Assembly (NCBI RefSeq): GCF_053078305.1
Contig: NZ_CP166879.1
Direction: 5' to 3' (one strand)
Length of the DNA stretch: 64,000 nucleotides
Part shown: piece after piece, positions 8,275-48,039 of the stretch
How the letters are laid out: every line of letters starts with the position of its first letter
Position numbering within the stretch: the first letter of the stretch is position 1
Translations under genes and position numbers: made by a program
Notes under the pieces: generated by a model
Database searches by the model: none
Seen by the model: only the letters and a program-made list of their open reading frames with translations
What the model was told of the DNA's origin: nothing

Positions 8275-8898
8275 ATGGAATGGATTGCCGATCCGTCTAT
8301 CTGGGCCGGGTTAATCACGCTGATTGTGATCGAACTGGTCCTCGGCATTGATAATCTGGTCTTTATTGCCATCCTCGCCGAAAAACTACCGCCGAAGCAG
8401 CGCGACCGCGCACGGGTTACCGGGCTGTTGCTGGCGATGTTAATGCGCCTGTTACTGCTGGCGTCAATCTCCTGGCTGGTCACCCTGACTCAACCGCTGT
8501 TCAGCTTCCGCTCGTTTACCTTTAGCGCCCGCGACTTAATCATGCTGTTTGGTGGTTTCTTCTTGTTGTTCAAAGCCACGATGGAGCTGAACGAACGGCT
8601 GGAAGGGAAAGACAGCAATAACCCCACGCAACGCAAAGGTGCGAAGTTCTGGGGGGTGGTGACACAAATTGTGGTACTGGACGCCATCTTCTCACTCGAC
8701 TCGGTGATTACAGCCGTCGGGATGGTCGACCATTTACTGGTCATGATGGCCGCCGTGGTTATCGCTATCAGCCTGATGTTGATGGCCAGCAAGCCGTTAA
8801 CGCAATTTGTTAACAGTCACCCGACCATCGTTATTCTCTGCTTAAGCTTCCTGTTGATGATTGGCTTTAGCCTGGTGGCAGAAGGTTTCGGCTTCGTG
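8275..8898 (+). pseudogene. yegH: yegH (TerC-family membrane protein) 5' fragment, interrupted by prophage left end
   Basis: ORF begins [18 protein letters not shown]... and carries only ~208 codons of a ~527-aa protein before reading into phage end and a stop at 8899-8901. Confidence 0.8.
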
Positions 8899-9075
8899 TA
8901 ACCAGGTGAATCATTTGATACCAACGAGGGTTTTAGTGAAAGGAGGTGAAATCACCTGTAAGATACTGAAATAAAACAGGTGATACCAATGCGAGCGCGG
9001 AAAGTCTATTTGATACCGATTGTGCAATAATTAGTCGTTTATTCTAAAATCGGCAACACTTTTGATACTACGGAT
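8897..9075 (+). repeat. prophage left end (attL-like) with transposase-binding-site repeats
   Basis: TTTGATACC at 8914 and 9009, TTTGATACT at 9061, GTGATACCA at 8979; spacing (about 17, 112, 164 bp from terminus) resembles Mu L1/L2/L3; terminus begins TGTA. Confidence 0.6.
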
Positions 9076-9168
9076 TGACGCTTAAAATGGTTTTAAAAAG
9101 GCTTAAAACGCTTTTCTCCAGATTGTCTTTAAAGGAGTGTACCACAGCACAAAATTTGCACCACTCCC

Positions 9169-9729
9169 TTACGCACTAGCCTTTTTCTGGGTTACATTTA
9201 AATGATTAACCTTAGCTTCACATTCTTCATAAATCTCTCTTGCTTCAGAATCTGACATATCCTTTAACCTTAAAGCAAGCTCTCGGCGAAAACCGCTAAG
9301 TGCATGTAATTCCTGAATATTATCATCCAATAAGATCGTTAGAAAATCAGCCCCCTTTCTGCCAAGCAATCGGGCTAATTCTAGTTGCTCATCGGTGCTG
9401 AGAGAGGACAGAATTGCCGTAATTGTTTGATTTGCATTATCTAAATTACCTGCATCGACAGTTGAACAACATGGAGTGCTTGGGGTATTTTCATCAGAAC
9501 CAAAAGCTAACCAATTTAAACTCACGTGCTCTTTATTTGATATAAGGCAAGCCATTTTAAAAGAGGGTTCTGTGCCTTTGTGTATGTAGTTATTTAAGGT
9601 TGATACAGGAACCCCCCAATCCTTTGCTGCTGCCCTTACACTCCGCGTCCCGATCAGGCTTAGTAAGCGGGCTTTAAAACTTTCTTTTCCTGGTGCATCA
9701 AAAGAAAAATTTCCATTCTCTTCAATCAT
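9169..9729 (-). CDS. Mu c-type lysogeny repressor
   Basis: 186 aa, leftward gene next to left end, divergent from ner; N-terminal DNA-binding region; position identical to Mu Repc. Confidence 0.75.
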   Translation of the reverse strand: MIEENGNFSFDAPGKESFKARLLSLIGTRSVRAAAKDWGVPVSTLNNYIHKGTEPSFKMACLISNKEHVSLNWLAFGSDENTPSTPCCSTVDAGNLDNANQTITAILSSLSTDEQLELARLLGRKGADFLTILLDDNIQELHALSGFRRELALRLKDMSDSEAREIYEECEAKVNHLNVTQKKASA

Positions 9730-9914
9730 TTTTTCTTTTCCTCATAACATATTGAAATAAAAAGAGATAACCAAATAAAACCCACTTCAGCCCACGGAGA
9801 CAAAAGAAAAAGCTATTTTTGCTTTACATGGACTACATTTGGATCAATACTTGTATCAAACTTGATAACAAAATTTAGTTATCAAATTTCGTAACTTTTT
9901 AGGATAGATGAATC
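9730..9914. promoter_or_regulatory. early operator / divergent promoter region between c and ner
   Basis: AT-rich 185-bp intergenic region between divergent repressor and ner genes, as in Mu; individual sites not resolved. Confidence 0.45.
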
Positions 9915-10145
9915 ATGGCGAGAAATGAAGTTAAGCCTGATTGGCATCCTCAAAGAATCTTGGGGGAAGTCAGAGCCAGAGAAGGAAGTATGAGGGCGCT
10001 GGCCCGTAAAGCTGGCGTAGGTCAGAACAACCTGTACAACGCGGTATACCGTCATGTTCCCAAGTATGAGGGGATTATTGCGGAATGCCTAGGTGTGCCA
10101 CCCGAGGAGATTTGGCCCAGCCGCTACATTCGTAAGGTCGCGTAA
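9915..10145 (+). CDS. ner: Ner-like DNA-binding protein
   Basis: 76 aa; first gene of early operon; HTH region LARKAGVGQNNLYNAVYR typical of the Ner/Nlp family. Confidence 0.8.
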   Translation: MARNEVKPDWHPQRILGEVRAREGSMRALARKAGVGQNNLYNAVYRHVPKYEGIIAECLGVPPEEIWPSRYIRKVA

Positions 10146-10147
10146 TT

Positions 10148-12235
10148 ATGTTTGCTTCAGTTAAAGAGCTGGTTGGATTACCGGGAATGCCGGGAACGGA
10201 GCAAGGCGTCCGCTATTCAATCAGGAAGTATGCAACCAGCGAAACCAGCAGACGCCGCCAGGAAGGCAGTAAAGGTTTTGAATACAGCATCGACTGTTTA
10301 CCTGAAGTGACGCAGCAGGCATTGCGTGAGCGCTACGCCCTGCAACTGATGACGCAAAAAGTCGATGAATCACCGGCTCCGGTGGTGACAAAGGCCAGAC
10401 GCTCGCCTGCCGTGGTTGATGCGGTGGAGGCATATCGCGGATCACCACAACTGATGGTTGAACGCCTTAATGCCCTGACTGAAAACCAGCGCCAGGTGGC
10501 TGATGCACGAATCGCGATCGTCAGCGAAGTGATGAAAGTCGCGCAACACCCCGGTTTCAGCTGTGCGAAAGCTATCCGGTTTATCGTTGACAACCTGGCA
10601 CGTTCGCAACTGGACGAGCGCATTGTGGCAATGGTTGAGACGGCGAACGCCAAAAAGGGAAACAGCCGTGCGTTGAGTGAAATAACGCTGAAACGCTGGA
10701 TTGCGGCCTTTAACAAGGCGCAGAACGCCGCTGAACGCCTGCTTTTACTGGCACCGGGTAAGCGCCAGGAAATAAAAGCCGAAGATATTAACTGGCTGCC
10801 CGAATTTCTGGCGCAGTATCGCCAGTCAAACGGCCGACCAATGACCGAGGCTTACGAGGATTTTGTCGCTGAATGGCAGCACCGGCACGCTGATGAGCCT
10901 TATATGCTCGATATCATGCCGTCTTATGACACCATTCGCCGCGCAATGAAGAAACTGCCGGAAGTGGTGAAACAAAAAGGCCGGGTGACCGGCAGTGAAT
11001 ACCGCCAGCTTGAGGGATTCACGCGCCGCGACTGGTCCAGAATGCCGGTGAATTATGTCTGGATTGGTGACGGTCACGGCATGAAGCTGAAATGCGCACA
11101 CCCGGTTCACGGTCGGCCATTTGCACCGGAAGTGACCTTTGTTATCGACGGTGGCACGCGCTTTGTGGTGGGCTGGAGCCTTGACCTGGCTGAAAATGTT
11201 TTCGCCGTAGCCGGTGCCATACAGCACGGCATTCGCCATCACGGCAAACCGTTTCTGTATTACTCGGATAACGGCTCCGGGGAAACCGCCGACATCCTGG
11301 ATAAGGAGGTTGTGGGGATACTGCCGCGACTGGGGATTAATCACCCGACCGGGATTGCCGGTAATCCGCAGGGACGAGGCATTATCGAACGGCTTAACCG
11401 CACATTACCGATGCGCATAGCCCGTAAATACCGCACCTATTTCGGGAAAGGTGCAGATCGCGAGACGTTACGCAAAACCAACCGCGATTTACGCTCGGCA
11501 TTTACTGCCCTGCAACAGGGCAAACGGCTGAACGTCCGGCAGCAGTCAGCGATGCGTGATTTACCGTCCTGGTCTGAACTGATTGATGCCATTCGTGACG
11601 GTGTTGAGTGGTACAACAACCGGCCGCACGATGAATTACCGGTGAAGCCGAACGGCAAGCATTACAGCCCGGCGGAGTTCAGAAAAAAACGCCTGGCGGA
11701 AGAGGACACGGAAATTGAATGGCTGTCCGATGTTGAGCTGCGGGATATGTTCCGGCCGATGGTGGAACGCCCTGTAAGACGCTGTGAAATACGCTGGCTG
11801 AATAATATTTACTACGCGCCCGAGCTGCGTGACGAGCATGGTCGTAAGGTGCTTATCAGCTATGACATTCATGATGCCGAACGAATTACCGTACGTCGCC
11901 TGGATGGCAGCGTGATTTGCGAGGCGGTATGGGACGGTAATAAACGCGAAGCCTTCCCGGTTAGTGCGGAATACTACAAACAGCAGCAACGCCTTAAAGG
12001 CATGCGTAAACGCGCAGAGGAAAAAATCCGTGATGCCGAGGATGAGGTTGTCAACGTGCTGGAGCACAAGCCGCAGGAGCCCTGGCTGGAAAACATCTAT
12101 CGCCCGGTAGGTAATACGGTGGCCGTTCAGCAACCGGTCGCTGACGATGAACCTGATGAAGAATACGAGCGTAATTTCCAGCGGGGATTGCAGTTGCTGG
12201 AAGCGAAATTAAAAGAAAATGACCCGCTGGCCTGA
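10148..12235 (+). CDS. MuA-like DDE transposase
   Basis: 695 aa; position after ner; central integrase-like core; size and order as MuA. Confidence 0.9.
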   Translation: MFASVKELVGLPGMPGTEQGVRYSIRKYATSETSRRRQEGSKGFEYSIDCLPEVTQQALRERYALQLMTQKVDESPAPVVTKARRSPAVVDAVEAYRGSPQLMVERLNALTENQRQVADARIAIVSEVMKVAQHPGFSCAKAIRFIVDNLARSQLDERIVAMVETANAKKGNSRALSEITLKRWIAAFNKAQNAAERLLLLAPGKRQEIKAEDINWLPEFLAQYRQSNGRPMTEAYEDFVAEWQHRHADEPYMLDIMPSYDTIRRAMKKLPEVVKQKGRVTGSEYRQLEGFTRRDWSRMPVNYVWIGDGHGMKLKCAHPVHGRPFAPEVTFVIDGGTRFVVGWSLDLAENVFAVAGAIQHGIRHHGKPFLYYSDNGSGETADILDKEVVGILPRLGINHPTGIAGNPQGRGIIERLNRTLPMRIARKYRTYFGKGADRETLRKTNRDLRSAFTALQQGKRLNVRQQSAMRDLPSWSELIDAIRDGVEWYNNRPHDELPVKPNGKHYSPAEFRKKRLAEEDTEIEWLSDVELRDMFRPMVERPVRRCEIRWLNNIYYAPELRDEHGRKVLISYDIHDAERITVRRLDGSVICEAVWDGNKREAFPVSAEYYKQQQRLKGMRKRAEEKIRDAEDEVVNVLEHKPQEPWLENIYRPVGNTVAVQQPVADDEPDEEYERNFQRGLQLLEAKLKENDPLA

Positions 12236-12306
12236 AATAAAAAAATAACCCGAGCGGCGACTCAGGTTATTTGATTAAACAAGGTATCAAATGAGAGGTT
12301 AATAAT

Positions 12307-13239
12307 ATGACTGATATTAACGATGTAATCAAGACCATTGATGAACTTATTGATGGCGGCGTACTGACGCAGTATGCCATCGCCAGAGAGGCGGGAATTT
12401 CCGACGGCACATTATCGGCTTTCCGTAAGGGAAAATATAAAGGCGATAACGCTGCTGTGGCTGCTTCCCTGCGTTCCTGGTATGAGAACTGGAATAAACA
12501 AAGCGCACTGCCGGAACCGCCGCAGTTTGTGGAAACGCAGACAGTCCAGGAGCTGCGCGCACTGTTTCAGGCGGTTCGTCTGATGGGCTGTATTAACGTT
12601 ATTGTGGGCGTACCGGGTGTGGGTAAAACGGCCACTGCCCGTAATTACTGCCAGGAGCAACCAAACACCTGGATGATCACCCTGTCACCCGCGCACTCCA
12701 GCGTCACGGAGTGTCTGCTGGAGCTGGCCGATGCGCTGGGGATTGATTACACCCGCGCGAACAAAGGGGCATTATCCCGCGCCATCCGCCGTCGCCTGAT
12801 GGGAACGCGTGGACTGGTGATTGTGGATGAGGCGGATCATCTTGGTATTGACGGTCTGGAGCAACTCCGGGCAATTCAGGACGCCACGGGGATCGGGATG
12901 GTGCTTATTGGTAACCCGCGCGGATTGTTTAAAGGTGGACGCCGCGCCTTTGATGATTTATCGCGCCTGTTCAGCCGTCTTGCCCGTACAAAACAACTTC
13001 GCAAGGCCAAAAAGGCGGATGTGCTGGCCATTGCCAGGGCATGGGGTATCAGTGGTGAGGCCGAGCTGGCCGTCATGCAGGCTATCGCTGAAAAGCCCGG
13101 TGCGTTACGTGTTCTGACACATACGCTTAACCAGGCGTGGCTCACAGCCAGCGGTGAAGGCGCGGCGCTGACAGAAAAACATATTAATGCGGCCTTTAAA
13201 GAGGTTTATACCAACCCTGAATTACTCTCACAGGTGTGA
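12307..13239 (+). CDS. MuB-like AAA+ ATPase, transposition target activator
   Basis: 310 aa; Walker A GVPGVGKT; Walker B VIVDEADHL; clear similarity to Mu B as recalled. Confidence 0.9.
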   Translation: MTDINDVIKTIDELIDGGVLTQYAIAREAGISDGTLSAFRKGKYKGDNAAVAASLRSWYENWNKQSALPEPPQFVETQTVQELRALFQAVRLMGCINVIVGVPGVGKTATARNYCQEQPNTWMITLSPAHSSVTECLLELADALGIDYTRANKGALSRAIRRRLMGTRGLVIVDEADHLGIDGLEQLRAIQDATGIGMVLIGNPRGLFKGGRRAFDDLSRLFSRLARTKQLRKAKKADVLAIARAWGISGEAELAVMQAIAEKPGALRVLTHTLNQAWLTASGEGAALTEKHINAAFKEVYTNPELLSQV

Positions 13240-13463
13240 TTATGGCGGTATTTAATATTCCTGATATTTACGGACGCTTTTACCTGGTTAATTTCGATAA
13301 CGTGAAGGTGATTTCACTGGCCGAAAATAAAGAATGTGGCGATTTACTTTTTGAATTTAATGACCGCACACGAATGGTGATATCTGCCGGACTTGATCGC
13401 GAAGGTGCGACAGACGTTTACAGCGGAATATGCCGTTCTGTTGGTGCGAAACAAGTCAGCTAA
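13236..13463 (+). CDS. small early protein (Kil position)
   Basis: 75-aa ORF overlapping B stop by 4 bp; same position and size as Mu kil; no motif confirmed. Confidence 0.4.
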   Translation: MIMAVFNIPDIYGRFYLVNFDNVKVISLAENKECGDLLFEFNDRTRMVISAGLDREGATDVYSGICRSVGAKQVS

Positions 13464-13730
13464 ATGAGGTGTTATATGAATATGCAATCCTGCGGTAACA
13501 AAATGAATTTATTCGACTCCCTGAACAGCGCGCGCCGTCTGACCGAACTTGCCGGTGCGGTACTGGAACGCAGTAAGCGCTATCCGCAACGTTTTGCACT
13601 GAAAACCACGCCGCCGGTAGGCAACGTGCAGGGAACCGGTGAAATTGAAATCACCATACAGACCAACGGCCTGCGCCGCCGTGTGAAGGCCACCCGCATC
13701 AGCGGCTGCACGGTTTACTGGGAGGTGTGA
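13464..13730 (+). CDS. early-region hypothetical protein
   Basis: 88-aa ORF tightly packed in early operon. Confidence 0.4.
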   Translation: MRCYMNMQSCGNKMNLFDSLNSARRLTELAGAVLERSKRYPQRFALKTTPPVGNVQGTGEIEITIQTNGLRRRVKATRISGCTVYWEV

Positions 13731-13731
13731 G

Positions 13732-14013
13732 GTGAAAAAAAATCTCATTGCATGGGCGTGGTCGAGTGGTCTTATTGAGTTTGGTTACGTCCTGCCGGAA
13801 GGTGCATTGCCGATAGTTGCCGGAAAGCCTGTCACGGTACGGCATGTGATTGAGGTTATGGCGCGTCATGGACGTGATGAACAGGAGCAGTTACTGGTTC
13901 CGGGGATACCGGAAGCGGTGACGGAGGAAGAAGCCTTTAATGCCATGATTCGGTTCTGCCGTGAGGTCAGACGCCGGGTCAGTTATCCAAACAGAACGAG
14001 GACCAGAGGATGA
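13732..14013 (+). CDS. early-region hypothetical protein
   Basis: 93-aa ORF, 2 bp after previous stop. Confidence 0.4.
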   Translation: MKKNLIAWAWSSGLIEFGYVLPEGALPIVAGKPVTVRHVIEVMARHGRDEQEQLLVPGIPEAVTEEEAFNAMIRFCREVRRRVSYPNRTRTRG

Positions 14014-14282
14014 GTAAAGTCGTACGCATTATTTTCGAATACAAGGAGCACGTTATCCATAAAAACGCTGATGGAACAGTGCGCATGGGGGTAAGTCTGG
14101 ACATACGTTCAACCGGGATAAAGCAGAAAGGTGATGGACCCGCCATGATTTTTGGAGTGGTTATGCTCGCGGAAAGCAGAGACTTTGCTGAACTTGTGGC
14201 AATGAAAGCCAGTGCGCTCATGAAAGATATGAGCATGCGTTCCGGGGTTATTAAAGGTAATGAATTTAATCAGCAGGGGTAA
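14010..14282 (+). CDS. early-region small protein, paralog 1 of tandem pair
   Basis: 90 aa; N-terminus MSKVVRIIFEYKEHVIHKNADG resembles next gene. Confidence 0.45.
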   Translation: MSKVVRIIFEYKEHVIHKNADGTVRMGVSLDIRSTGIKQKGDGPAMIFGVVMLAESRDFAELVAMKASALMKDMSMRSGVIKGNEFNQQG

Positions 14283-14286
14283 TTCC

Positions 14287-14580
14287 ATGAGCAAAGTACG
14301 CGTTATTTTTGAATTTAAGCATGTTTCGCATGACGAAAAACCGGCAGGTAATGACTGTGTTGAAGTGCATGAAAAGATTGGTGTGGATGTAAAAACAGAA
14401 CGTGATACGAATAACAGGCCGACGTCACTCTGTGACGTTTATGCAAGTATTCTCCAGTATCACAGTCCTGAAATTATTCAGTTTCTCTCAGCGGAATTTC
14501 AGGCATCTGTACAGGCTTTTGGGGCGGATGCCATCATTAAACGCCACCGCGTGCATAAAGCATCAGGCACACTGCAATAA
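14287..14580 (+). CDS. early-region small protein, paralog 2 of tandem pair
   Basis: 98 aa from internal Met; MSKVRVIFEFKHVSHDEKPAGN parallels previous ORF. Confidence 0.45.
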   Translation: MSKVRVIFEFKHVSHDEKPAGNDCVEVHEKIGVDVKTERDTNNRPTSLCDVYASILQYHSPEIIQFLSAEFQASVQAFGADAIIKRHRVHKASGTLQ

Positions 14581-14591
14581 GGAAAAACAAA

Positions 14592-15122
14592 ATGGCTAAA
14601 CGTGTTACAAAATTAAAGGCCGCAGCCGAGGCTGCACCGCAGACCCGCGAAGAAGTCAGCCGCGATATCCGTACCCTGGGCGATATTCAGCGAGAGGCGC
14701 TACGGCTGGAAACGGCGATGAATGATGAAGTGGCAGAAATCACCGCCCGTTATACGCCGCAGATTGAAAACCTTAAAAAAGAAATCAAAGTGCTTTTTAA
14801 GGGGATTCAGGACTGGTGCAAAACCAACCGCGATGAGCTGACGAACGGCGGCAAAACCAAAACAGTCAATCTGACCACCGGCACGGTGTCATGGCGGCTG
14901 GGAACGCCATCATGCAGCGTCAGCCGTGATGTGGAAGGTGTGATTGAAATGCTGCGCCGTATGGGGCTTGAGCGATTCATCCGCACGAAAGAGGAAGTGA
15001 ACAAGGAAGCGGTCCTGGCGGAGCCGGATGCGGTGAAAGGGATTGCCGGTATTAAGGTAAATAAAGGCGCTGAAAGTTTTTATGTCGAGCCTTTTGAACA
15101 GGACGCCGGACTGAATAAATAA
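14592..15122 (+). CDS. gam: Gam-like host-nuclease inhibitor (Ku-like DNA-end binding protein)
   Basis: 176 aa; strong similarity to Mu Gam as recalled (RLETAMNDEVAEITARY, NRDELTNGGKTKT, GLERFIRTKEEVNKEA). Confidence 0.85.
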   Translation: MAKRVTKLKAAAEAAPQTREEVSRDIRTLGDIQREALRLETAMNDEVAEITARYTPQIENLKKEIKVLFKGIQDWCKTNRDELTNGGKTKTVNLTTGTVSWRLGTPSCSVSRDVEGVIEMLRRMGLERFIRTKEEVNKEAVLAEPDAVKGIAGIKVNKGAESFYVEPFEQDAGLNK

Positions 15123-15219
15123 CACCACATTAAATCTTTAAATATCACATCGTTTTAATTATGGCGCTCGCGTCAGGGGACTGCCTGCGCCTGTAAACTG
15201 AAAATAAGGAACAGGAAAT

Positions 15220-15762: not shown

Positions 15763-15765
15763 TTC

Positions 15766-16814: not shown

Positions 16815-16817
16815 TGC

Positions 16818-17677: not shown

Positions 17678-18042
17678 CGGGAGGTGAATGCGTGAGAAGT
17701 TATATTGATAATGAAAAACTGAAGACAATCAGCGACTGTCTTAGCTTGCTGGCAAAAATAAAAGAAACCATTGAAGAGATTAAATTTCAGCTTGAATACG
17801 CACCCTGTGGTGATGATACATGGCGTAACTCTGCCAGAAAAGCACTGGCTGTCTTTCAGAAACAACGCCGGACTGTTGAATACCGCCTTGCTGTATTACG
17901 CCAGGAGGAAAAGGAAAGAAATATAAGATGTCACGAGCGCGTTAATAACTTCCTTGTTCGTGAATTAAAAGAACGTGTGCCGGAGTCGGTATTTTTTGAG
18001 TGTGAGGCTGTTGCCCGTAGCAAAGCACTGGAAACTGATTAA
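17650..18042 (+). CDS. early-region hypothetical protein (start uncertain)
   Basis: 130-aa ORF; likely starts at an internal Met near 17674. Confidence 0.35.
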   Translation: MPYFSFTGMTGGECVRSYIDNEKLKTISDCLSLLAKIKETIEEIKFQLEYAPCGDDTWRNSARKALAVFQKQRRTVEYRLAVLRQEEKERNIRCHERVNNFLVRELKERVPESVFFECEAVARSKALETD

Positions 18043-41206: not shown

Positions 41207-42117
41207 TGTTTCATGTTGATAATAATTCCGGCGTGGCGAATATGCCTGCGCTGGCACCGGCGCAGAGTAATACCACCACCTGGTTTACCGAAGGTGACGG
41301 ACAAAAAGGTATCAGCTGGATTGGTCAGGACTGGCTGAATATTCTCCAGGCCGAACTGCTGAATATTCTGGCTGAAGCCAGTATTCAGCCGGATAAGGCG
41401 CAGTTAAACCAGCTTACGCTGTCCATTAAAGCCATTATCGCTGCGAATGCCTTTTCCCGGAAAAACAACCTGAAAGAAATTGCTGATGCCGGTGCGGAAG
41501 CCCAGCGTCTTGCCCGTGGTTATCTTGGTCTTGGGGCGCTTGCCACAAAAAACAGTCTTGGTCCCGGTGACGTTAATGCTCTGGCGAAGGATCAGAACCT
41601 TGCCGACCTGGAGAATGCGGGAACCGCCCGTAATAATCTGGATGTTTACAGCAAAAGCGAAGGTGATAACCGTTACCTGCGCAGGGAGCAGAACGGCGCA
41701 GACATTCCGGATAAAGGCGCTTTTATCGATAACGTCGGTTTACGGGAAACGGTAAATAAGGCTGCTGATGCCCTGCCATCGGGTGGAACCGCCGTGGCAG
41801 CAAACAGACTCGCCACCCCAAGAAATATTAATGGCGTTCCTTTTGACGGAACGCAGGATATCAACATCACGTCAGGAATGACGCAGTCAACCGCAGATGG
41901 CCGGTATGTACAGAATGTTCAGCTTGGAGCACAGAGCTATCATTCACCCGGAGGCAATGAAATATCATGGAATTACAGCGCACCTTCCGGTTGTATGCTT
42001 TCCGGTATTAACGTGCAGGAAACCGGCTCCCGGTCTGCGGACAATATCGGTGGGGTCTATTATCGCCCGGTTCAGATTTATATTAATAATGCCTGGAGAA
42101 CGGTAAGTTCAGTGTAA
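41206..42117 (+). CDS. tail fiber protein S; C-terminal ~120 codons lie inside the invertible segment (Sv in current orientation)
   Basis: 303 aa; C-terminus homologous to the minus-strand alternative segment (YYRPVQIYINNAWRTVSS vs YYRPVQFLIDGSWKTASS). Confidence 0.8.
   Translation: MFHVDNNSGVANMPALAPAQSNTTTWFTEGDGQKGISWIGQDWLNILQAELLNILAEASIQPDKAQLNQLTLSIKAIIAANAFSRKNNLKEIADAGAEAQRLARGYLGLGALATKNSLGPGDVNALAKDQNLADLENAGTARNNLDVYSKSEGDNRYLRREQNGADIPDKGAFIDNVGLRETVNKAADALPSGGTAVAANRLATPRNINGVPFDGTQDINITSGMTQSTADGRYVQNVQLGAQSYHSPGGNEISWNYSAPSGCMLSGINVQETGSRSADNIGGVYYRPVQIYINNAWRTVSSV
41735..41888 (+). repeat. left inverted repeat of invertible segment
   Basis: TCGGTTTACGGG ... CCAAGAAATATTAATGG ... 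ACGCAGTC matches reverse complement of 42957-43110. Confidence 0.7.
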
Positions 42118-42151
42118 ACCACAGAAAAGGGTGCTGAATGCACCCTCTGAA

Positions 42152-42673
42152 TTATTCCGGTTTTTCCGGCCAGGGAATCGCCTGGTAATGCCCCTCACTG
42201 GCAATATCATTAAAGTGCATTTCTTTAAGCTGTCGGATATACGCCATCCAGCGCGTCAGCTGTAATTTATTTTCATCGCTAATCATGTCCAGTTTTAATT
42301 CTGTTTTCCAGTCATCCACGGTTTCGTTGGCTTCCTGGAGCAGCGATGAGCGACGCTTTTCAGCAACCGTCTTCCAGTTTACCGGCACCTTTGATATCAG
42401 GCCATCAGAAAACTGCCAGTTACCGTCAATATTCACACCTTCCGGCAGTTCGTCCACTTCAACAACAGTAAAACCTGCCGGATATAAAGCAGAGACATCT
42501 TCAGCAACAGAGCAGATAATACCCGTTACAGGCGAAATACAGAGTTTGTATTTCTTTGTGAAAAGCGGGATAGATTCATAAAAATCCCTTCCGTCCTCAC
42601 TCTGGAAATACTGAACATCCTCACCATAGGGTTTGTGTTCCGGGTAATATCGTTTTACGTTAATAAGCTCCAT
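42152..42673 (-). CDS. tail fiber assembly chaperone (Tfa/U-like), inverted relative to S in current orientation
   Basis: ~174 aa from MELINVKRYYPE; typical Tfa N-terminus; lies inside invertible segment. Confidence 0.75.
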   Translation of the reverse strand: MELINVKRYYPEHKPYGEDVQYFQSEDGRDFYESIPLFTKKYKLCISPVTGIICSVAEDVSALYPAGFTVVEVDELPEGVNIDGNWQFSDGLISKVPVNWKTVAEKRRSSLLQEANETVDDWKTELKLDMISDENKLQLTRWMAYIRQLKEMHFNDIASEGHYQAIPWPEKPE

Positions 42674-42752
42674 TATTTCACCTTGTTTTTGTTGAAAAGA
42701 CAAAATCATCATATATTTATTCAGATAATCTGTTTTTTGAACTACTGCACTT

Positions 42753-43095
42753 TTATGCGCTGGAAGCTGTTTTCCACGAACCATCTATCAGAAACTGAAC
42801 AGGTCGATAATATGCGGTTACCGTTGCATTACCATCACCAGCGACATCAAGCCCTGTAAGTACGCATCCGTCAGGAACTTCAAAAATATTATATTGCATT
42901 CCAATCGTTGACCTTGAACCTCTTCGAATGCTTTGAACATAACGTGAGTCAGCCACAGACTGCGTCATCCCCGATGTAATATTTATATCCTGCGTTCCGT
43001 CAAATGGGACACCATTAATATTTCTTGGAGTGGCGAGTTTATTCGCTGCAACAGCCGTTCCGTTCGATGGCAGGGCATTCGCGGCCCTGTTTACA
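42753..43095 (-). CDS. alternative tail-fiber C-terminal segment (Sv'-like), promoterless in current orientation
   Basis: minus-strand frame open from the right gix site; homologous to S C-terminus (MTQSVADSRYVQ..., YYRPVQFLIDGSWKTASSA). Confidence 0.65.
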
Positions 43096-43110
43096 GTATC
43101 CCGTAAACCG
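42957..43110 (-). repeat. right inverted repeat of invertible segment
   Basis: reverse complement matches 41735-41888 with scattered mismatches. Confidence 0.7.
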
Positions 43111-43177
43111 AGGTTTCAGGGATGCCGTATATCTGCTTTAAAAGGCCTTTCCACCTCTTTTTAAGGAAGGTAAATAC

Positions 43178-43738
43178 ATGCTGATTGGCTATATACGCGT
43201 ATCAACAAATGACCAGAACACCGGTTTACAAAGAAATGCGCTGGAATGTGCAGGATGTGAGCAGATTTTTGAAGACAAAATGAGTGGTAAAACGACACAG
43301 CGGCCGGGACTGAAGCGGGCACTGAAGAAACTAAAACCCGGTGACACACTGATGGTCTGGAAACTGGACAGGCTGGGGCGCAGTATGCGCCACCTTGTTG
43401 CGCTGACAGATGAATTACAGCAACAGGGGATAAATTTTCGTAGTCTTACTGACAACATTGATACGTCAACCCCCATGGGGCGCTTCTTTTTTCACATAAT
43501 GGGTGCGCTGGCAGAAATGGAGCGTGAATTAATTGTCGAACGGACACGGGCTGGTCTTGCAGCTGCCCGTGAAAGGGGACGAACCGGCGGCAGACCCCGT
43601 CGTCTCACGCAGGAACAATACGAGCAGGTCGGGCGTTTACTGGCCGGGGGTGTCAGTCGAAGACAGGTGGCACTTATTTTTGATATCGGCCTTTCAACCC
43701 TTTATCGTTATTATCCTGCGAGCGTTTCGGAAAAATAA
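43178..43738 (+). CDS. gin: Gin/Hin/Pin-family serine DNA invertase
   Basis: 186 aa; catalytic-Ser N-terminus MLIGYIRVSTNDQN; C-terminal HTH; adjacent to invertible segment. Confidence 0.9.
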   Translation: MLIGYIRVSTNDQNTGLQRNALECAGCEQIFEDKMSGKTTQRPGLKRALKKLKPGDTLMVWKLDRLGRSMRHLVALTDELQQQGINFRSLTDNIDTSTPMGRFFFHIMGALAEMERELIVERTRAGLAAARERGRTGGRPRRLTQEQYEQVGRLLAGGVSRRQVALIFDIGLSTLYRYYPASVSEK

Positions 43739-43828
43739 GACGCTCCCTTTGTTGGGCCTTTACTGAATTAACGCAAAATGGCGTTTATCGGTCTGTGGAT
43801 ATGATAATTCTGTTTATTCAGGAACAGG

Positions 43829-45886
43829 ATGAATATTATGACGTCCAAATGGGTTCAACTATCATCAATGCCCGGAAACTTTACCGTTAAAGTTTCCGGT
43901 GGTACAGCGGCATTTCTTGAGGCTCCCTTTCCTCCTGCTGAAACGAAAGGAGGAATGACATTTGCTGACTGTCTCATCAGTTTTAATACACAGGATTGCC
44001 TGTGGGTAAGGCCAGTATCCGGTGATCCGAACGTGGAAATTACCGGAGCGGGTATTGGTGCTGTCATTCCGTTAAGTGCTGATGTTGCCGGTACTACTGA
44101 ACCGTCAGACTGGGATAATGCAGAAACACATACCCGTCCGGCAGGAAATGAAACGGCTTCCAGCTCCCCTTCCTGGTATTACGTGATTGTTATAGCCGGC
44201 CAGTCCAATGCTTCATCTTATGGTGAAGGGTTGCCCCTTCCGGATTCTTATGATCGTCCTGATCCACGTATTATGCAGCTGGCACGCAGGAATACACAAA
44301 CCCCCGGAGGTATTCCCTGCAAATACAATGAAATCATTCCAGCAGATCACTGCCTTCATGATGTTCAGAATATGAGTCTGCTGAACCATCCAAAAGCAGA
44401 CCTGAAAAAAGGGCAGTATGGTTGTGTGGGGCAGGGACTTCATATTGCGAAAAAAGTATTACCGGTGATTCCTGCTGATGCCGGGATTTTACTGGTTCCC
44501 TGTGCCCGTGGCGGCTCTGCTTTTACAACCGGCGCAGTTGGCTCATTCGATCCGGCAAGTGGTGCAGCCGAGGCGTCACTACGCTGGGGAGTGGATACCC
44601 CACTGTATCAGGATCTTGTCAGTCGAACTAAAGCGGCACTTGAGGCGAATCCAAAGAATGTGCTGTTATCTGTCGTATGGATTCAGGGGGAAGGAGACCT
44701 TAAAGCGACCCCGGCCCAGCATGGTGCCCAGTTTACTGCGATGGTGAAAAAATTCCGTGCGGATCTTGGGGCTTTCTCCGGTCAGTGTATTGGTGGTTCA
44801 TCAGACAGTGTGCCGTGGTTATGTGGTGACACAACCTATGACTGGAAAGAGAAGAACCCGGCGGCATATGAAACCATTTATAGCGGATATAAAAACCGGG
44901 CTTCCGAGAACATTCACTTTGTTCCACTGATGCACGATGAGTTCGGTAATAAAACCGCGACCAACCTGCCGGAGCACGACCCGGATATCGCTTCTGCCGG
45001 GTATTATGGTGCGGAATCACGGGGAGATGGCAACTGGACAACAGCATCCAGGGCAACCCATTTTAGCTCCTGGGCGCGCCGTTTTCTGGTCTCAGATCGT
45101 TTTGCATCAGCAATTCTTAAATATGCAGGTCTGACCTCTGCATTTATTGCCGGTGTGGCCCCTGATGGTGAAACCCTGCCTCAGCCCGCGCCGGGTGGGA
45201 AACCGGAAGCGCCGACAGGTAGTCAGCCAGGAGGCAGTGAGTCCCCCCATCCGACATCCCCGTCACTCCGTACGCTGCTTTCACTTAAAGCATCAGCAGG
45301 AGAAGCCCCGGCTCAGGGCTGGAAAATTACAGATGGTACAATCCAGCTGACGGACGAAGGTAAAGCGTTGACCGTATCCAAACAAAGCGGAAAAACCTGG
45401 ACGCTTACCCATGGAACTGATGCAGCCGGTGAACTTCTGAAGCATGGTGGTCAGTTGACCTGTAAATTCCGTCTGTCAGGTGAAGTAAAAGAAGGCCAGT
45501 TTGCTCTGGGTATTTACCTCCACACCGATACGGTCCCGGAAGGTGTAACCATGAGTGGTACAGGCACACCGTTCCTGATGGCGTATTATCTCCAGACAAC
45601 AGGCGGCCAGTTAAATCTGATGCACCATAAAACAGGGGGGAATACGAAACTGGGATCATTTGGAGCCTACAATAACCAGTGGCATACACTTGTCCTGAAG
45701 TTTACGGCGGGAAGTGCCCAGGTAACGCCTGTGCTGGATGGCACTCCGGGCCAGGCATTCCAGATGGTGAAAGATGCACTTTCCCCTGCCAAAGATACGC
45801 TGACACTGACAGATGTCACCAAAGGGGCAACTTATGGCGTGTCTTTTGAGAGCGTTGTCCTTGAGGTTAATACCCCTGCGGCATAA
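43829..45886 (+). CDS. cargo protein with central SGNH / sialate-O-acetylesterase-like domain and C-terminal beta-sandwich domain
   Basis: 685 aa; GQSNASSYGE motif after a hydrophobic strand, typical of SASA/DUF303 esterases; Pro/Gly-rich linker PQPAPGGKPEAPTGSQPGGSESP; Mu has no gene here. Confidence 0.6.
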   Translation: MNIMTSKWVQLSSMPGNFTVKVSGGTAAFLEAPFPPAETKGGMTFADCLISFNTQDCLWVRPVSGDPNVEITGAGIGAVIPLSADVAGTTEPSDWDNAETHTRPAGNETASSSPSWYYVIVIAGQSNASSYGEGLPLPDSYDRPDPRIMQLARRNTQTPGGIPCKYNEIIPADHCLHDVQNMSLLNHPKADLKKGQYGCVGQGLHIAKKVLPVIPADAGILLVPCARGGSAFTTGAVGSFDPASGAAEASLRWGVDTPLYQDLVSRTKAALEANPKNVLLSVVWIQGEGDLKATPAQHGAQFTAMVKKFRADLGAFSGQCIGGSSDSVPWLCGDTTYDWKEKNPAAYETIYSGYKNRASENIHFVPLMHDEFGNKTATNLPEHDPDIASAGYYGAESRGDGNWTTASRATHFSSWARRFLVSDRFASAILKYAGLTSAFIAGVAPDGETLPQPAPGGKPEAPTGSQPGGSESPHPTSPSLRTLLSLKASAGEAPAQGWKITDGTIQLTDEGKALTVSKQSGKTWTLTHGTDAAGELLKHGGQLTCKFRLSGEVKEGQFALGIYLHTDTVPEGVTMSGTGTPFLMAYYLQTTGGQLNLMHHKTGGNTKLGSFGAYNNQWHTLVLKFTAGSAQVTPVLDGTPGQAFQMVKDALSPAKDTLTLTDVTKGATYGVSFESVVLEVNTPAA

Positions 45887-45943
45887 TCGTGACGGCCGGG
45901 AATTTATCCGGCTGTAACATCAGTTAATAAGAGTGAGGCTTAT

Positions 45944-46123
45944 ATGACATATATAAACGTCTGCCTGCTGTATTTCTGCACGGTGGTTTGTTGTCTGTTG
46001 CTTGTCAGCGGTGGTTATAAAATTATTCGCAATTATTTTCGAAATAAAATTGATGCAGCTGCCGAGGAAAAGATAAAAAGCGGTGCTGTAATGCCGCAGC
46101 CGAAAGACTCCGGTCAGATTTAA
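45944..46123 (+). CDS. small membrane protein (59 aa)
   Basis: ATG with GAGG Shine-Dalgarno 6 nt upstream; hydrophobic Cys-rich N-terminus CLLYFCTVVCCLLLVSGG; below the 60-aa ORF-track cutoff. Confidence 0.4.
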   Translation: MTYINVCLLYFCTVVCCLLLVSGGYKIIRNYFRNKIDAAAEEKIKSGAVMPQPKDSGQI

Positions 46124-46158
46124 TTTTTTGTGAACCAGAAAAGGAAAGGAGAATATTC

Positions 46159-46404
46159 ATGCCAGAGATTAAAGGCACGGTTACTGAAGAGCTTGTCAAA
46201 CAGGCACTTTATTCTGAAGAAGTGAACCGCGTGCTGAAGGCGCAGGTTCGCAAGGATTTTGAGGCACAAATCGACGCATATGTTGATGAAGTGCTGGCCC
46301 GAATGGTTGGTCGTTCTCCGGCTGAAAACAGCACGGAAAATGAGCCTCAACCCGTAGAGCAACCAGAGCCGGTTCAACCCGGAACTGACGGTACTATGAT
46401 GTAA
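46159..46404 (+). CDS. small acidic hypothetical protein
   Basis: 81 aa; AGGAG Shine-Dalgarno upstream; acidic Pro/Glu-rich C-terminus. Confidence 0.45.
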   Translation: MPEIKGTVTEELVKQALYSEEVNRVLKAQVRKDFEAQIDAYVDEVLARMVGRSPAENSTENEPQPVEQPEPVQPGTDGTMM

Positions 46405-46442
46405 CAATACCGACCGGCAGGTTTCCCTGCCGGGTGAATTTG

Positions 46443-46613
46443 TTAATGCACGTTTTGTGTATTTTCCCTCCGGGGAGAACAGGCAGGACATATCAGCATC
46501 CTGAAACAGGAAGCATTTTTTGGTTTGTATGTCTTGCCATTTTGAGATCGAGAACGGCGATAGATGAGCTGTAAGGGAGTCTTACAGGCAGGGCAAACAG
46601 GCTCTTTATCCAT
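46443..46613 (-). CDS. small zinc-ribbon protein (two CPAC motifs)
   Basis: 56 aa from internal Met (MDKEPVCPACKTPL...ICPACSPRR); AAGGAGA Shine-Dalgarno 8 nt upstream on minus strand. Confidence 0.45.
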   Translation of the reverse strand: MDKEPVCPACKTPLQLIYRRSRSQNGKTYKPKNASCFRMLICPACSPRRENTQNVH

Positions 46614-46721
46614 GATAAAGATCTCCTTTTTATGCATCTCTGCTTTACAGGAGACCGGGGAATATCATAGGATACGCCACGAGCTCGAAGTAAAGCATTG
46701 ATGCAAGTTTTTACAGATTGA

Positions 46722-46756
46722 CCCAGCATAGTTCCAGCTATGCTGGGTTTCCCTTT
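46722..46756 (+). terminator. rho-independent terminator-like hairpin (or palindromic operator)
   Basis: perfect 10-bp inverted repeat CCCAGCATAG-TTCCAG-CTATGCTGGG followed by TTTCCCTTTTA. Confidence 0.5.
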
Positions 46757-46757
46757 T

Positions 46758-47019
46758 ATGTAGTATCCTGTTGATTTGAAACATACTACATATACGCGCG
46801 ATCCTACCTTCACTGTATAAAAAGTCAATAAAATGATCATTTTATGATCGTTTTCACCACCTAACTCTTCGTTTCTTTAAGTAAATAATCACCGCCCTGA
46901 ATCATTGTTGATGACTTTTAAATCTATTTGTTGTATCAATTAAACAAATCGAATCGATCGTTTTTGTCGATCGATTGCATGAGAAAGGCATCAACAACAA
47001 AGCAGGAGGTTATGCGGCC
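46758..47019 (+). promoter_or_regulatory. com-mom control region with dyad symmetries and Dam GATC cluster
   Basis: ATGTAGTAT-N16-ATACTACAT dyad (46758-46791); palindrome AAATGATCATTT (46831-46842); GATC at 46800, 46835, 46846, 46956, 46969; two TCGATCG motifs 13 bp apart ~50-65 bp upstream of com. Confidence 0.5.
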
Positions 47020-47220
47020 ATGTATCGAAACATACGGTGCCGACACTGCAATAAGCTACTGGCACGGGCCAGTTTCAGTTATCTGGAAGTAAAATGTCCG
47101 CGCTGTAAAACCCTCAATCAAATCACATCTCCGAGCGCCACAGAGCACCCCACATACACAAGGAAATCCTGTCGTGGGGAACAGAAAGCAAGTCACATCC
47201 CGTATCATCAGCACGCCTGA
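47020..47220 (+). CDS. com: Com zinc-finger translational activator of mom
   Basis: 67 aa; [10 protein letters not shown]...[12 protein letters not shown] parallels Mu Com as recalled; AGGAGG Shine-Dalgarno upstream; overlaps mom start. Confidence 0.8.
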
Positions 47221-47911
47221 ACTTATTCGCTATAACGACAATATCGTTGGTTATGGCTCCCGTGAGTTGCGGGTTGAGACAATAAGTTGCTGGCTGGCCA
47301 GACTGGTTATCGTCAATAAACATTACAGCCACCGTTTCGTAAATAATTCCTACCTTCATCTGGGTATATTTTCAGAACGGGAACTTGTTGGCGTAATGCA
47401 ATGGGGTTACGCCCTTAACCCAAACAGTGGTGCACGCGTCGTAACGGGTACGCAGAACCGAGAATATATGGAGCTTAACCGGCTATGGATGCATGACTGT
47501 ATGCCGAGAAACTCCGAATCAAGGGCAATCAGTTACGCGCTCAAGCTAATCAGGCAGCTTTATCCGCAGGTACAGTGGGTTCAGTCGTTTGCAGATGAGC
47601 GTTGTGGCTGTCTTGGTGTCGTGTATCAGGCAAGCAATTTTGATTATGTAGGCAGCCATGAATCAACATTCTATGAACTTGATGGCGAGTGGTATCACGA
47701 GATTTGCAGGAGTGCCATTAAACGAGGCGGACAACGAGGTGAACATCTGAGGGCTAATATCGACAGAGCCAGTGTGCATAAGTTCCGACAGTTTCGTTAC
47801 ATCCGGTTTCTGAACAAGAGGGCCAGAAAACGCCTCAACACAAAGCTATTCAAAGTCCAGCCTTACCCAAAACCACAAACAGTTAAAACTGGTTTGAAAG
47901 AGAGTGAATGA
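47174..47911 (+). CDS. mom: Mom DNA-modification enzyme (adenine N6 modification, anti-restriction)
   Basis: 245 aa; last prophage gene, overlapped by com as in Mu; family assignment from position and com linkage. Confidence 0.7.
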
Positions 47912-47957
47912 GCGCTTAAAAACTCATTCTAAAACTCAAAAGAAAAGCGCCGATTTA

Positions 47958-48039
47958 GTATCAAATAAGTTGCGTATCGGCGTTTTTCAGCGGTATCAAA
48001 TGAAATGCAAATCGGTATCAAAAAAATCGCCGCGCTATA
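47958..48039 (+). repeat. prophage right end (attR-like) with three transposase-binding-site repeats
   Basis: AGTATCAAA (47958), GGTATCAAA (47992), GGTATCAAA (48014): inverted copies of the left-end motif, clustered like Mu R1-R3; terminus placed where ftnB reading frame diverges. Confidence 0.6.

Follow-up and report, generated by a model that had tools for sequence, protein, structure and literature searches.

Extent and termini of the prophage

The prophage occupied positions 8897 to 48039 of the window (the whole stretch of 64,000 nucleotides that was analysed), with a total length of 39,143 bp and the ends TGTAACCAGG...CCGCGCTATA. Host homology changed to phage homology at 8896/8897 on the left and at 48039/48040 on the right. 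A Mu-family transposable prophage had been proposed for 8897-48039 in a sequence-only reading, and this was borne out by the A and B genes, the Mu-type gene order and the insertion-site evidence. The element and its end sites were as follows.

8897 to 48039, plus strand: whole Sp18-type Mu-like prophage, delimited by the host/phage homology breakpoints and by termini common to 11 further copies
8914 to 9069, plus strand: left-end array of three putative transposase sites TTTGATACY (8914-8922, 9009-9017, 9061-9069)
47957 to 48022, minus strand: right-end array of three putative TTTGATACY sites, facing inward (48014-48022, 47992-48000, 47957-47965)

The motif TTTGATACY was found nine times in the window against 0.81 expected, and none of 100 shuffles reached nine. 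Six of the nine lay within 170 bp of the prophage ends, every one inward-facing and three per end; the left set was at offsets of 18, 113 and 165 and the right set at 18, 40 and 75, each counted from its own end. These computed offsets and orientations agreed with the inverted, Mu-like arrangement reported earlier, and the repeats were, as had also been stated, not those of Mu, since the ends in the Mu record (TGTATTGATTCACTTGAAGTACGAAAA...) were unrelated in sequence. The left-end array was kept in the copy of strain 142 although the surrounding sequence was divergent.

The left terminus was TG, while the 5'-TG...CA-3' form of transposable phages was absent: the right terminus (...GCGCTATA) ended in TA, had no CA within its last 15 nt and was invariant in 12 copies. 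Ten independent simple insertions at ten different loci each showed an exact 4-bp duplication and identical TG...TA termini. A 5-bp duplication obtained by shifting the boundaries was rejected, as counting the terminal T as target fitted four of eight insertions and counting the terminal A only one of eight. The 4-bp duplication had already been annotated by the depositors of LC727881, and a full-text literature search found no paper on it in Sp18-type phages. Neither an integrase homologue in the gene list of the prophage nor an att site was found. With its many unrelated insertion sites, short target duplication and lack of integrase and att site, the lineage belongs with the transposable phages.

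No tRNA was found by ARAGORN, and Rfam returned nothing at the gathering threshold over 40 kb. One tRNA-like match came from a focused Rfam search. A scan of genome contigs with the 16-mer AAATCGCCGCGCTATA was discarded; its 105 matches, of which those listed were in unrelated taxa, equalled the chance number in 298 Gb, the pattern being too short.

Transposition and early genes

A tblastn search with all Mu proteins gave the gene order ner, A, B, gam, gp11, gp12, gemA, C/Mor, lys, gp25-27, TerL, portal, F, G, I, T, gp35-38, L, M, gp41, tape measure, N, P, gp45-48, S, U' (minus strand), gin, com and mom. The core genes were full length, which upheld the earlier description of complete modules in Mu order with intact reading frames; the sole broken gene of the prophage was a cargo ORF at 46120-46873. 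All Sakai Sp18 proteins with a counterpart in the window mapped full length and without stops, and one 61-aa Sp18 ORF was absent because it falls in a segment that is replaced in the window. The genes of the early part were:

9169 to 9729, minus strand: repressor (c-like), PHROG 3037 transcriptional repressor, E=1e-46
9915 to 10145, plus strand: Ner-like early regulator, 45% identity to Mu Ner
10148 to 12235, plus strand: transposase A, 695 aa, by Pfam (PF02316 and PF09299) and PDB matches
12307 to 13239, plus strand: MuB-like AAA+ target-DNA activator, 48% identity to Mu B over 300 aa
13242 to 19372, plus strand: early/semi-essential region, by tblastn with Mu, PHROG and comparison with Sp18; includes kil-like 13476-13730, gam 14592-15122, D5-like regulator 16818-17369 and gemA 18863-19372, all on the plus strand
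19442 to 19867, plus strand: Mor/C-family late activator, the sole one; both Mu C (39% identity) and Mor (26%) aligned here

Transposase A had the architecture of a Mu-type DDE transposase, with a MuA-type N-terminal DNA-binding domain (PF02316, E=2e-7), an integrase-like DDE core and a Mu-transposase C-terminal domain (PF09299, E=4e-17). Its N-terminus matched PDB 1tns, residues 362-424 matched RSV integrase, and the core contained DNGS...ER. Just two short pieces aligned with Mu A in tblastn. The B gene lay directly 3' of A, and its identical counterpart on contig 3 of E. coli strain 48 matched Pfam Phage-MuB_C.

The repressor showed 35% identity to that of Sp18, and therefore the prophage is probably of a different immunity type; Mu c as a tblastn query gave no match in the window. 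The early region also held homologues of gp11 and gp12 and small ORFs of phage-only families. About 2 kb of extra early genes had been suggested earlier. The gam-gemA interval was indeed approximately 3.7 kb long against 1.9 kb in Mu, but the mor-gp20 block of Mu was absent. In relatives, PGAP named the late activator 'Mor transcription activator family'.

Lysis, head and tail genes

The lysis, packaging, head and tail genes were as follows.

19939 to 20902, plus strand: lysis genes, endolysin (19939-20439) and Rz-like spanin (20474-20902), by Mu and Sp18 homology and the annotation of relatives
21921 to 29919, plus strand: packaging and head genes, 52-72% identity to Mu proteins and full length against Sp18; gp27, TerL 22502-24166, portal 24166-25755, F 25739-27064, G 27190-27663, protease/scaffold I 27839-28972 and capsid T 28972-29919
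29963 to 41206, plus strand: connector, sheath L, tube M, tape measure (34026-36095), N, baseplate P and gp45-48, by Mu and Sp18 homology
41206 to 42117, plus strand: tail fibre S, with a constant N-terminal part and a variable part within the invertible segment

Residues 1-191 of Mu S aligned with tail fibre S at 48% identity, and the exact S protein was indexed in 6,261 blocks of a public collection.

Invertible segment, cargo and com-mom

The right part of the prophage contained the following features.

41731 to 43115, no strand: Gin-invertible segment, with 182-nt inverted repeats at 41731-41912 and 42934-43115
43178 to 43738, plus strand: Gin-type serine invertase, intact, 75% identity to Mu Gin
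43829 to 46404, plus strand: cargo cassette, by Pfam and homology to nanS-p/yjhS of Stx phages
43829 to 45886, plus strand: predicted NanS-p-like sialate O-acetylesterase, SASA (PF03629, E=8e-13) and DUF6645 (PF20350, E=2e-25)
45945 to 46124 and 46159 to 46404, plus strand: DUF1378 and DUF826 genes, by Pfam
46120 to 46873, minus strand: disrupted cargo ORF, split into 123-aa and 115-aa ORFs
47020 to 47911, plus strand: DNA-modification operon, with com at 47020-47220 (47% identity to Mu Com) and mom at 47174-47911 (76% identity to Mu Mom)

The invertible segment carried a single tail-fibre assembly gene on the minus strand (42155-42676) together with an alternative fibre tip, and its orientation was opposite in relatives and in one of the two prophage copies of strain 48 (copy A). 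A gap of 3,281 bp separated gin from com, compared with about 95 bp in Mu, which accounts for the cargo of approximately 3 kb that had been noticed there.

The predicted esterase combined a SASA catalytic domain with a C-terminal DUF6645, the domain pair that defines NanS-p, and was 50-61% identical to nanS-p (yjhS-like) products of lambdoid Stx phages, including 933W L0105. In those phages the cassette likewise continues with DUF1378 and DUF826, a gene set described in Stx2a phages (PMC10462455), but is situated downstream of stx, whereas in the window it stood between gin and com. Exact-protein look-up of the esterase gave no record for the 685-aa start and a match for the 672-aa start. The minus-strand cargo ORF was annotated as frameshifted in most relatives fetched and was an intact 154-aa CDS in Sakai Sp18, which the ORF of the window matched in part only.

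Relationship to known phages

Overall, the element is almost certainly a gene-complete transposable prophage of the Sp18 lineage. Sp18 of E. coli O157:H7 Sakai and the Sp18-like Mu-like phages of Shiga-toxin E. coli (STEC), among them Phi804-3 and the inserts in the Stx phages LC727881 and LC727895, had the same termini, six end sites and gene order. The window was collinear with Sp18 at 93-99% over blocks, with 91-100% protein identity for most genes, and shared the invertible segment, the position of the esterase-DUF1378-DUF826 cargo, com-mom and the 4-bp target duplication, which assigns it to the Sp18 type. Nucleotide identity to the annotated Mu-like inserts was 97.4% and 95.9%, the former to the LC727881 insert over 94% of the first 21 kb. 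Differences from Sp18 were found in the immunity region (repressor and ner, 35-43% identical), the protease/scaffold (75%) and the esterase (60%), and the discordant flanks described below belong to the window copy. The immunity type of the window was present in other E. coli genomes at 99.5% identity. The right-end region was present in 232 of 5,426 complete E. coli genomes, and Sp18-type Mu-like phages are frequent in STEC genomes (PMC10132054). Sakai Sp18 was predicted to be intact and its DNA was efficiently packaged by experiment (PMC2669165). Such production has been shown for Sakai Sp18 only, and would be expected of the window copy from its intact genes.

The comparison with Mu, D108 and SfMu (Muvirus) that had been proposed as a check aligned only 3-6% of the first 21 kb, in patches at about 73%, which places the prophage outside Muvirus. 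The overall genome plan was shared, with homologues of B, gam, gemA, C, the lysis, head and tail genes, gin, com and mom at 26-76% identity. Mu also has three transposase sites per end at comparable spacing (in the Mu record these are CGAAA-type sites, with a terminal site and an inner pair on the left and close spacing on the right), and a 27-nt stretch of the G-I spacer near the Mu gyrase site was conserved in the window. However, MuA gave no significant BLAST alignment to the transposase core, and Mu c had no homologue. The window further differed in its end motif, in a right terminus of TA instead of CA, in a right-end site R3 that was not inverted, in having one Mor/C activator against two, and in the cargo insert of 3.3 kb between gin and com that Mu is without. 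The target duplication of Mu is 5 bp (PMC8705779), against 4 bp in Sp18-type copies.

The transposase was closer to that of the D3112/DMS3 group (Casadabanvirus; approximately 30% identity over 89% of the length) and of Pseudomonas phage VW-6B (47% identity over about 90% of the length). The left end of D3112 (TGCTGTGGGGAGGTGACTGTTTTGACAC) resembled TGTAACCAGGTGAATCATTTGATACC of the prophage, and carries GGTGA..TTTTGACAC, which is similar to the left-end array. The end comparison was that of the D3112 left end; the VW-6B record begins 54 nt before the repressor gene, and the D3112 record does not finish cleanly at its right terminus. By annotation, the D3112/DMS3 group and VW-6B have non-Mu tail genes and are without gin and mom, and they showed no nucleotide similarity to the window beyond a terminase patch.

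The Sp18 lineage is thus almost certainly a mosaic of a D3112-like transposase and ends, a MuB-like ATPase, a Mu-like head and tail with gin and com-mom, and a lambdoid cassette of the NanS-p-type esterase. [quoted passage not shown] From this anatomy and the other copies, DDE transposase A would bind the three TTTGATACY sites at each end, and A together with B would link these ends to almost any stretch of target DNA, through cuts staggered by 4 bp.

Host flanks and the two copies in E. coli strain 48

The flanks of the prophage and the interval at which its sequence changed from one resident copy to the other were:

8275 to 8896, plus strand: left host flank, the 5' part of yegH (nt 1-622 of a 1584-nt gene), last 4 bp TTCG
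48040 to 48177, minus strand: right host flank, nt 1-138 of ftnB, beyond which araF, araG and further genes run in descending K-12 order
40697 to 41073, no strand: switch interval from copy A to copy B sequence, by comparison with contigs 3 and 4 of strain 48

Window positions 1-8897 aligned to K-12 2,129,627-2,138,524 in ascending order, while 48040-64000 aligned to K-12 1,987,062 down to 1,970,326. The yegH and ftnB flanks are therefore 151 kb apart in K-12 and mutually inverted. The flanking 4-mers also differed, with TTCG on the left and CTGG on the right, so that the window copy had no target duplication. The plain insertion implied by the sequence-only reading was contradicted by these flanks.

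The PacBio draft of E. coli strain 48 (GCA_000736735.1; PMC5323612) appears to be an independent assembly of the same strain, and contained two prophage copies, A on contig 3 and B on contig 4. Contig 3 ran through wza, the 5' part of yegH, copy A, the 3' part of yegH and asmA, with TTCG at both sides of copy A. TTCG is the target duplication of the yegH insertion, and copy A is a clean simple insertion; its gin was interrupted by an IS66-family element. Contig 4 began inside the phage, 910 bp into the shared sequence, and ran into the 5' part of ftnB, araF and araG. The right flank of the window was 100% identical to this contig (JPQG01000004.1).

In the stretches fetched, contig 3 was identical to the window over 6148-16235 and 24026-41073, whereas 201 differences were found across 41074-41888 and the invertible segment had about 91% identity. 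Over 40164-51886 the sole difference of contig 4 was an additional T at 40696, close to the contig end, which is probably a sequencing error; gp48 was intact in the window and had the extra T in contig 4. Because the flanks are discordant and without target duplication, and the sequence matches copy A and then copy B, the element of the window is a composite of two resident copies and not a normal insertion.

Many contigs matched the truncated YegH (208 aa) in an exact look-up, each of them a wild-type yegH contig that itself stops at that codon (GTC AT...); the matches are an artefact of exact matching and do not support a widespread yegH insertion. The 114-aa C-terminal FtnB ORF was called in many genomes whose ftnB is a pseudogene, and the places listed did not include strain 48.

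Origin of the hybrid junction

An inversion driven by recombination between the two resident copies, of which the window holds one junction, is a reading to which we give an even chance. The host strain would have carried the copies in opposite orientation, one in yegH (duplication TTCG) and one in ftnB. Homologous recombination between them in the cell would have inverted the segment in between (151 kb in K-12 terms), leaving in the window a hybrid of 32 kb from the left of copy A and 7 kb from the right of copy B, between the 5' part of yegH and that of ftnB. The reciprocal junction predicted by this inversion would have ftnB (reverse complement, from nt 135) ending in CTGG joined to TGTAACC at its left end, and at its right end, which would carry gin::IS66, ...GCTATA joined to TTCGTCATTCC... 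The hybrid should still be able to transpose and form particles, because both ends are present and its gin is intact, compared with gin::IS66 in copy A. By analogy with Sp18, mitomycin C would not be expected to induce it, and its virion DNA would carry variable host DNA at the two ends.

Two simple insertions, A in yegH and B in ftnB, would give the same window if an assembler had left the long shared repeat by the wrong exit, and such a mis-join is a serious possibility, although we put it well short of even. The sole independent assembly has copy A uninverted and clean, with matching TTCG on both sides, and contig 4 breaks off 910 bp into the shared sequence, as is typical at repeats. Neither host-phage junction was present in any complete RefSeq genome (5,426 E. 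coli genomes). The switch from A to B also falls where the identity of the two copies runs out, within the final 377 bp of shared sequence (40697-41073), as happens when an assembler collapses a repeat, and a random crossover within 32 kb of homology would have only about a 1% chance of that position. The point loses weight, since the extra T at 40696, its sole marker, is probably a sequencing error. Against a mis-join, the route that contig 3 takes through a repeat of up to 32 kb has no better support than that of the window, given the length of PacBio reads in 2014. The window is also continuous and error-free over the switch, with gp48 intact, and STEC chromosomes commonly show inversions between prophage copies in inverted orientation (PMC7430833).

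Inversion by intramolecular replicative transposition is a classical outcome of Mu replication. A single copy attacking a target 151 kb away would duplicate itself and invert the segment in one step, which predicts the geometry found here, with one old and one new flank per copy and no matching duplication. The two copies were not replicas, however, as 201 substitutions or indels separated their right parts over roughly 800 bp, and the invertible segment was approximately 91% identical; the IS66 insertion was in copy A only, and copy A was flanked by the same 4 bp, the signature of a simple insertion. This origin is consequently improbable. An ordinary single insertion, whose flanks had become neighbours through an older, unrelated rearrangement, would agree with the intact ends and core genes but was refuted by the data and retains next to no credibility: the 4-bp duplication present in 10 of 10 simple insertions was absent, the yegH and ftnB breakpoints coincided exactly with the phage termini, and the 3' part of yegH adjoined the right end of another copy in strain 48.

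The wider proposal joins two parts, namely that recombination inverted approximately 151 kb and rebuilt an intact gin+ phage from an IS66-crippled copy, and that the lineage is a natural DDE system with a right end of TA and 4-bp target cuts. Taken as a whole it is tentative, and we place it a little below even.

Implications

The element should be annotated as an Sp18-type Mu-like prophage and not as a new lineage, and the copy in the window is of use as the marker of a yegH-ftnB breakpoint. If the resident copies did give rise to an inversion, it would be another case of prophage copies reshaping an STEC chromosome, reshuffling phage modules and restoring an intact invertase gene. If the junction is an assembly error, flagging it keeps a false inversion and a false "complete prophage" out of comparative analyses. 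The TA terminus and 4-bp duplication, which were recorded by depositors and not discussed in the literature searched, give a modest lead for transposition biochemistry. If true, a TA-ended 4-bp system would be a ready-made test of the need for CA in Mu-type transpososomes and of the control of stagger length.

Boundaries and end sites

The switch from host to phage homology occurred at 8896/8897 on the left and 48039/48040 on the right, giving an element of 39,143 bp with termini TGTAACCAGG...CCGCGCTATA. The motif TTTGATACY was found at nine sites in the window, where 0.81 would be expected; in 100 shuffles the count always stayed below nine. Six of these sites were less than 170 bp from the termini, each facing inward:

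Left end: offsets 18, 113 and 165 from the left terminus, inward
Right end: offsets 18, 40 and 75 from the right terminus, inward

The terminal sequences in the Mu record were unrelated to these ends, while the spacing of the CGAAA-type sites of Mu was comparable. The homology breakpoints, motif counts and Mu record showed that the sequence-only reading had accurately described the boundaries, three inward sites per end, Mu-like spacing and a non-Mu motif. Two exact internal copies of the end motif (TTTGATACC) were present at 12283-12291 (minus strand), in the 71-bp spacer between A and B, and at 29383-29391 (plus strand), inside the capsid gene. Both could be due to chance, or the transposase could bind the A-B copy as a regulatory site.

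Phage type and transposase

The first 21 kb of the element were 97.4% and 95.9% identical to regions of Stx phages annotated by the GenBank depositors as 'inserted Bacteriophage Mu-like phage'. Mu, D108 and SfMu aligned over 3-6% of this stretch at approximately 73% identity; the earlier view of a distinct lineage was borne out for the transposase and ends. The element was collinear with Sp18, a prophage of E. coli O157:H7 Sakai, but the immunity-region proteins were just 35-43% identical; other E. coli genomes carried its own immunity type at 99.5% identity. Sp18 has been described as a Mu-like phage, predicted intact, that mitomycin C does not induce and that is packaged efficiently (PMC2669165), and Sp18-like phages occur in one to three copies per genome at strain-specific sites in other STEC lineages (PMC10132054, PMC7430833). 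The right-end region was present in 232 of 5,426 complete E. coli genomes, in up to four places per genome, and the exact tail-fibre protein was indexed in 6,261 blocks of a public collection. Collinearity with Sp18, the published descriptions and this wide occurrence place the element in a known and common phage type.

Protein A (695 aa) carried a Mu N-terminal DNA-binding domain and a Mu-transposase C-terminal domain. In PDB searches the I-alpha domain of MuA matched its N-terminus, and the part of the retroviral integrase core that holds the second Asp and the Glu matched residues 362-424. The nearest phage transposase was that of Pseudomonas phage VW-6B (47% identity), those of the D3112/DMS3 group were approximately 30% identical over 89% of the length, and the D3112 left end TGCTGTGGGGAGGTGACTGTTTTGACAC was similar to that of the element, TGTAACCAGGTGAATCATTTGATACC. 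Taken with the Mu-like genes, these matches mark the lineage as a mosaic in which the transposase and ends are D3112-like and the B gene and virion genes Mu-like.

Gene content

A tblastn search of the window with every Mu protein recovered the Mu gene order from ner to mom, with identities from 26% (Mor) to 76% (Mom), including TerL (72%), capsid protein T (66%) and B (48%). No match was obtained for the Mu c repressor, kil, gp6-9, gp13-15 and the mor-gp20 block, and the Mu A alignment was limited to two short pieces, N- and C-terminal. All Sakai Sp18 proteins with a counterpart mapped full length and stop-free except for one cargo ORF. Both searches bear out the claim that the Mu modules are present in Mu order with intact reading frames. 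Every extra gene of the early region belonged to a phage-only PHROG family. Individual features were as follows:

19442-19867: Mor/C-type activator, the sole one in the element (tblastn with Mu proteins)
41731-41912 and 42934-43115: 182-nt inverted repeats of the invertible segment, with one tail-fibre assembly gene
43829-45886: NanS-p-like protein, 685 aa, SASA and DUF6645 domains
46120-46873, minus strand: broken cargo ORF, annotated with a frameshift in most relatives fetched, intact in Sakai Sp18

The single Mor/C activator and the absent mor-gp20 block suggest that transcription in Sp18-type phages proceeds as a cascade of two steps, not three. In the window orientation, also that of Sakai, 41206-43115 held a 303-aa fibre gene without a same-strand assembly gene after it; comparison with other copies (L143/L148 and L003) showed that the flipped orientation has a 295-298-aa fibre gene followed by the assembly gene.

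The 125-bp spacer between F and G, lacking in Mu because its F and G overlap, contained a tRNA-like element at 27064-27151 (minus strand). Its score with the Rfam tRNA model was 30.0 bits, the gathering score being 29. The acceptor and T arms fit well, but the 11-nt anticodon-loop segment of the model is replaced by 26 nt. The equivalent of this element in relatives is labelled 'tRNA-OTHER' by PGAP, and ARAGORN made no call at 27064-27151. In the G-I spacer, a 27-nt stretch (window 27711-27737, CGTGATTTTCTAACCTGTATTTAACGG) was identical at 23 of 27 positions to Mu 17907-17933 (CGGGATTTTTAAACCGGTATTTAACGG), which is approximately 30-50 bp away from where the gyrase cut site is annotated; the window stretch may be the counterpart of the Mu strong gyrase site.

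The gap from gin to com measured 3,281 bp, in agreement with the cargo insert of about 3 kb noticed earlier. The 685-aa cargo protein was 50-61% identical to nanS-p/yjhS products of Stx phages (e.g. 933W), and its gene was followed by DUF1378 and DUF826 genes; Stx2a phages carry the same set between nanS-p and the holin gene (PMC10462455). Within the lineage, 44640-46145, which covers the last two-thirds of the esterase gene (its C-terminal part) plus the DUF1378 gene, was a replaceable module. The copies of strain 142 and JNE141411 matched it at approximately 98% identity, while Sakai Sp18 and O157 Z1825 gave no nucleotide match and had esterase proteins just 60% identical.

Target duplication

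Ten simple insertions were compared: eight in complete E. coli genomes (including Sakai Sp18), the yegH insertion of E. coli strain 48 (copy A) and the insert in Stx phage LC727881. All ten showed exact 4-bp direct repeats (AGCT, TAAC, TTAC, TAAA, CGTT, CACG, TGAT, CATA, TTCG and CATC). A 5-bp duplication through a one-base boundary shift fitted just four of the eight complete-genome insertions on one side and one of eight on the other, and was rejected. The scar expected from reviews is 5 bp in Mu and 6 bp in B3 (PMC8705779). The 4-bp duplication is already on record, since the depositors of LC727881 annotated the same 4 bp as 'duplication due to insertion of Mu'. All copies examined ended in TA on the right and had no CA within their final 15 nt. 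Since these copies sit at separate loci and carry duplications, the TA end has to be functional.

Discordant flanks and the copies of strain 48

Window 1-8897 aligned in ascending order to K-12 2,129,627-2,138,524 and ended inside yegH, the final aligned base (T at 8897) being the phage's first base. Window 48040-64000 aligned in descending order to K-12 1,987,062 to 1,970,326 and started inside ftnB. The flanking 4-mers were TTCG on the left and CTGG on the right. Searches with both junction regions (left, yegH; right, ftnB/araF) found neither junction spanned in any of the 5,426 complete E. coli genomes. The geometry excludes a deletion or a simple insertion as origin, and is that of one junction of a 151-kb inversion. 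The sequence-only reading was confirmed in its observations and only partly in its interpretation: the phage type was already known, and treatment as a plain prophage missed that yegH and ftnB stand in opposite K-12 order with differing 4-mers. The right-flank alignment also skipped K-12 1,978,503-1,979,270, the IS1H upstream of flhD in MG1655, which is absent at window 55824-55831, upstream of flhDC.

When the window's transposase and the fusion ORF of ftnB' and phage were looked up as exact proteins, GCA_000736735.1, a PacBio draft of strain 48, a roe-deer STEC (PMC5323612), was the only assembly to contain them. Two of its contigs were informative:

Contig 3 (1.42 Mb): wza, yegH 5' part, copy A, yegH 3' part, asmA; TTCG on both sides
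Contig 4 (384 kb, JPQG01000004.1): starts at window 40164; S, gin, esterase and mom (copy B), ftnB 5' part, araF, araG

Copy A had an IS66-family element inserted in gin and carried the invertible segment in flipped orientation. Contig 3 was 100% identical to the window in the fetched stretches 6148-16235 and 24026-41073, followed by 201 differences across 41074-41888. Contig 4 was identical to window 40164-51886 except for one extra T at 40696, near the contig end. Identity to contig 3 up to 41073 and to contig 4 beyond it makes the window element a composite of the left 32 kb of copy A and the right 7 kb of copy B. The extra T (contig 4 position ~533; CCTTGAC versus CCTGAC) would frameshift the gp48 homologue, no gene was called there, and it is probably a PacBio error near the contig end; if real, it would be the sole marker of the crossover point.

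Inversion or mis-join

When inverted copies sharing a long identical stretch recombine, the intervening segment inverts. Recombination between inverted copies A and B would flip the segment between them and leave the window as one inversion junction. An assembler leaving the repeat by the wrong exit would yield exactly the same sequence. Such a mis-join is a serious possibility, if short of an even chance: the sole independent assembly has the uninverted state, and the change from A to B falls right on the margin of the shared region. However, this edge argument depends on the extra T, prophage-bounded inversions are common in STEC (PMC7430833), and the path of contig 3 through the repeat is no better supported than that of the window. 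We regard a real chromosomal inversion, the leading reading, as about evenly poised between true and false, and what probability remains falls to other explanations. An inversion produced directly by replicative transposition is unlikely, because the right parts of copies A and B belong to the sequences of different phages.

A second Sp18-type copy with discordant flanks was seen in E. coli strain 142 (NZ_CP028609.1, 3286554-3325393), bordered on its left by a truncated gene for the ISEc8 transposase and on its right by a truncated polyketide synthase-like gene, and lacking a 4-bp duplication (TACG versus CGAC), so rearrangement-associated copies may not be rare. Overall, the phage type itself was already known, and what is noteworthy in the window element is that it would be a hybrid at a breakpoint.
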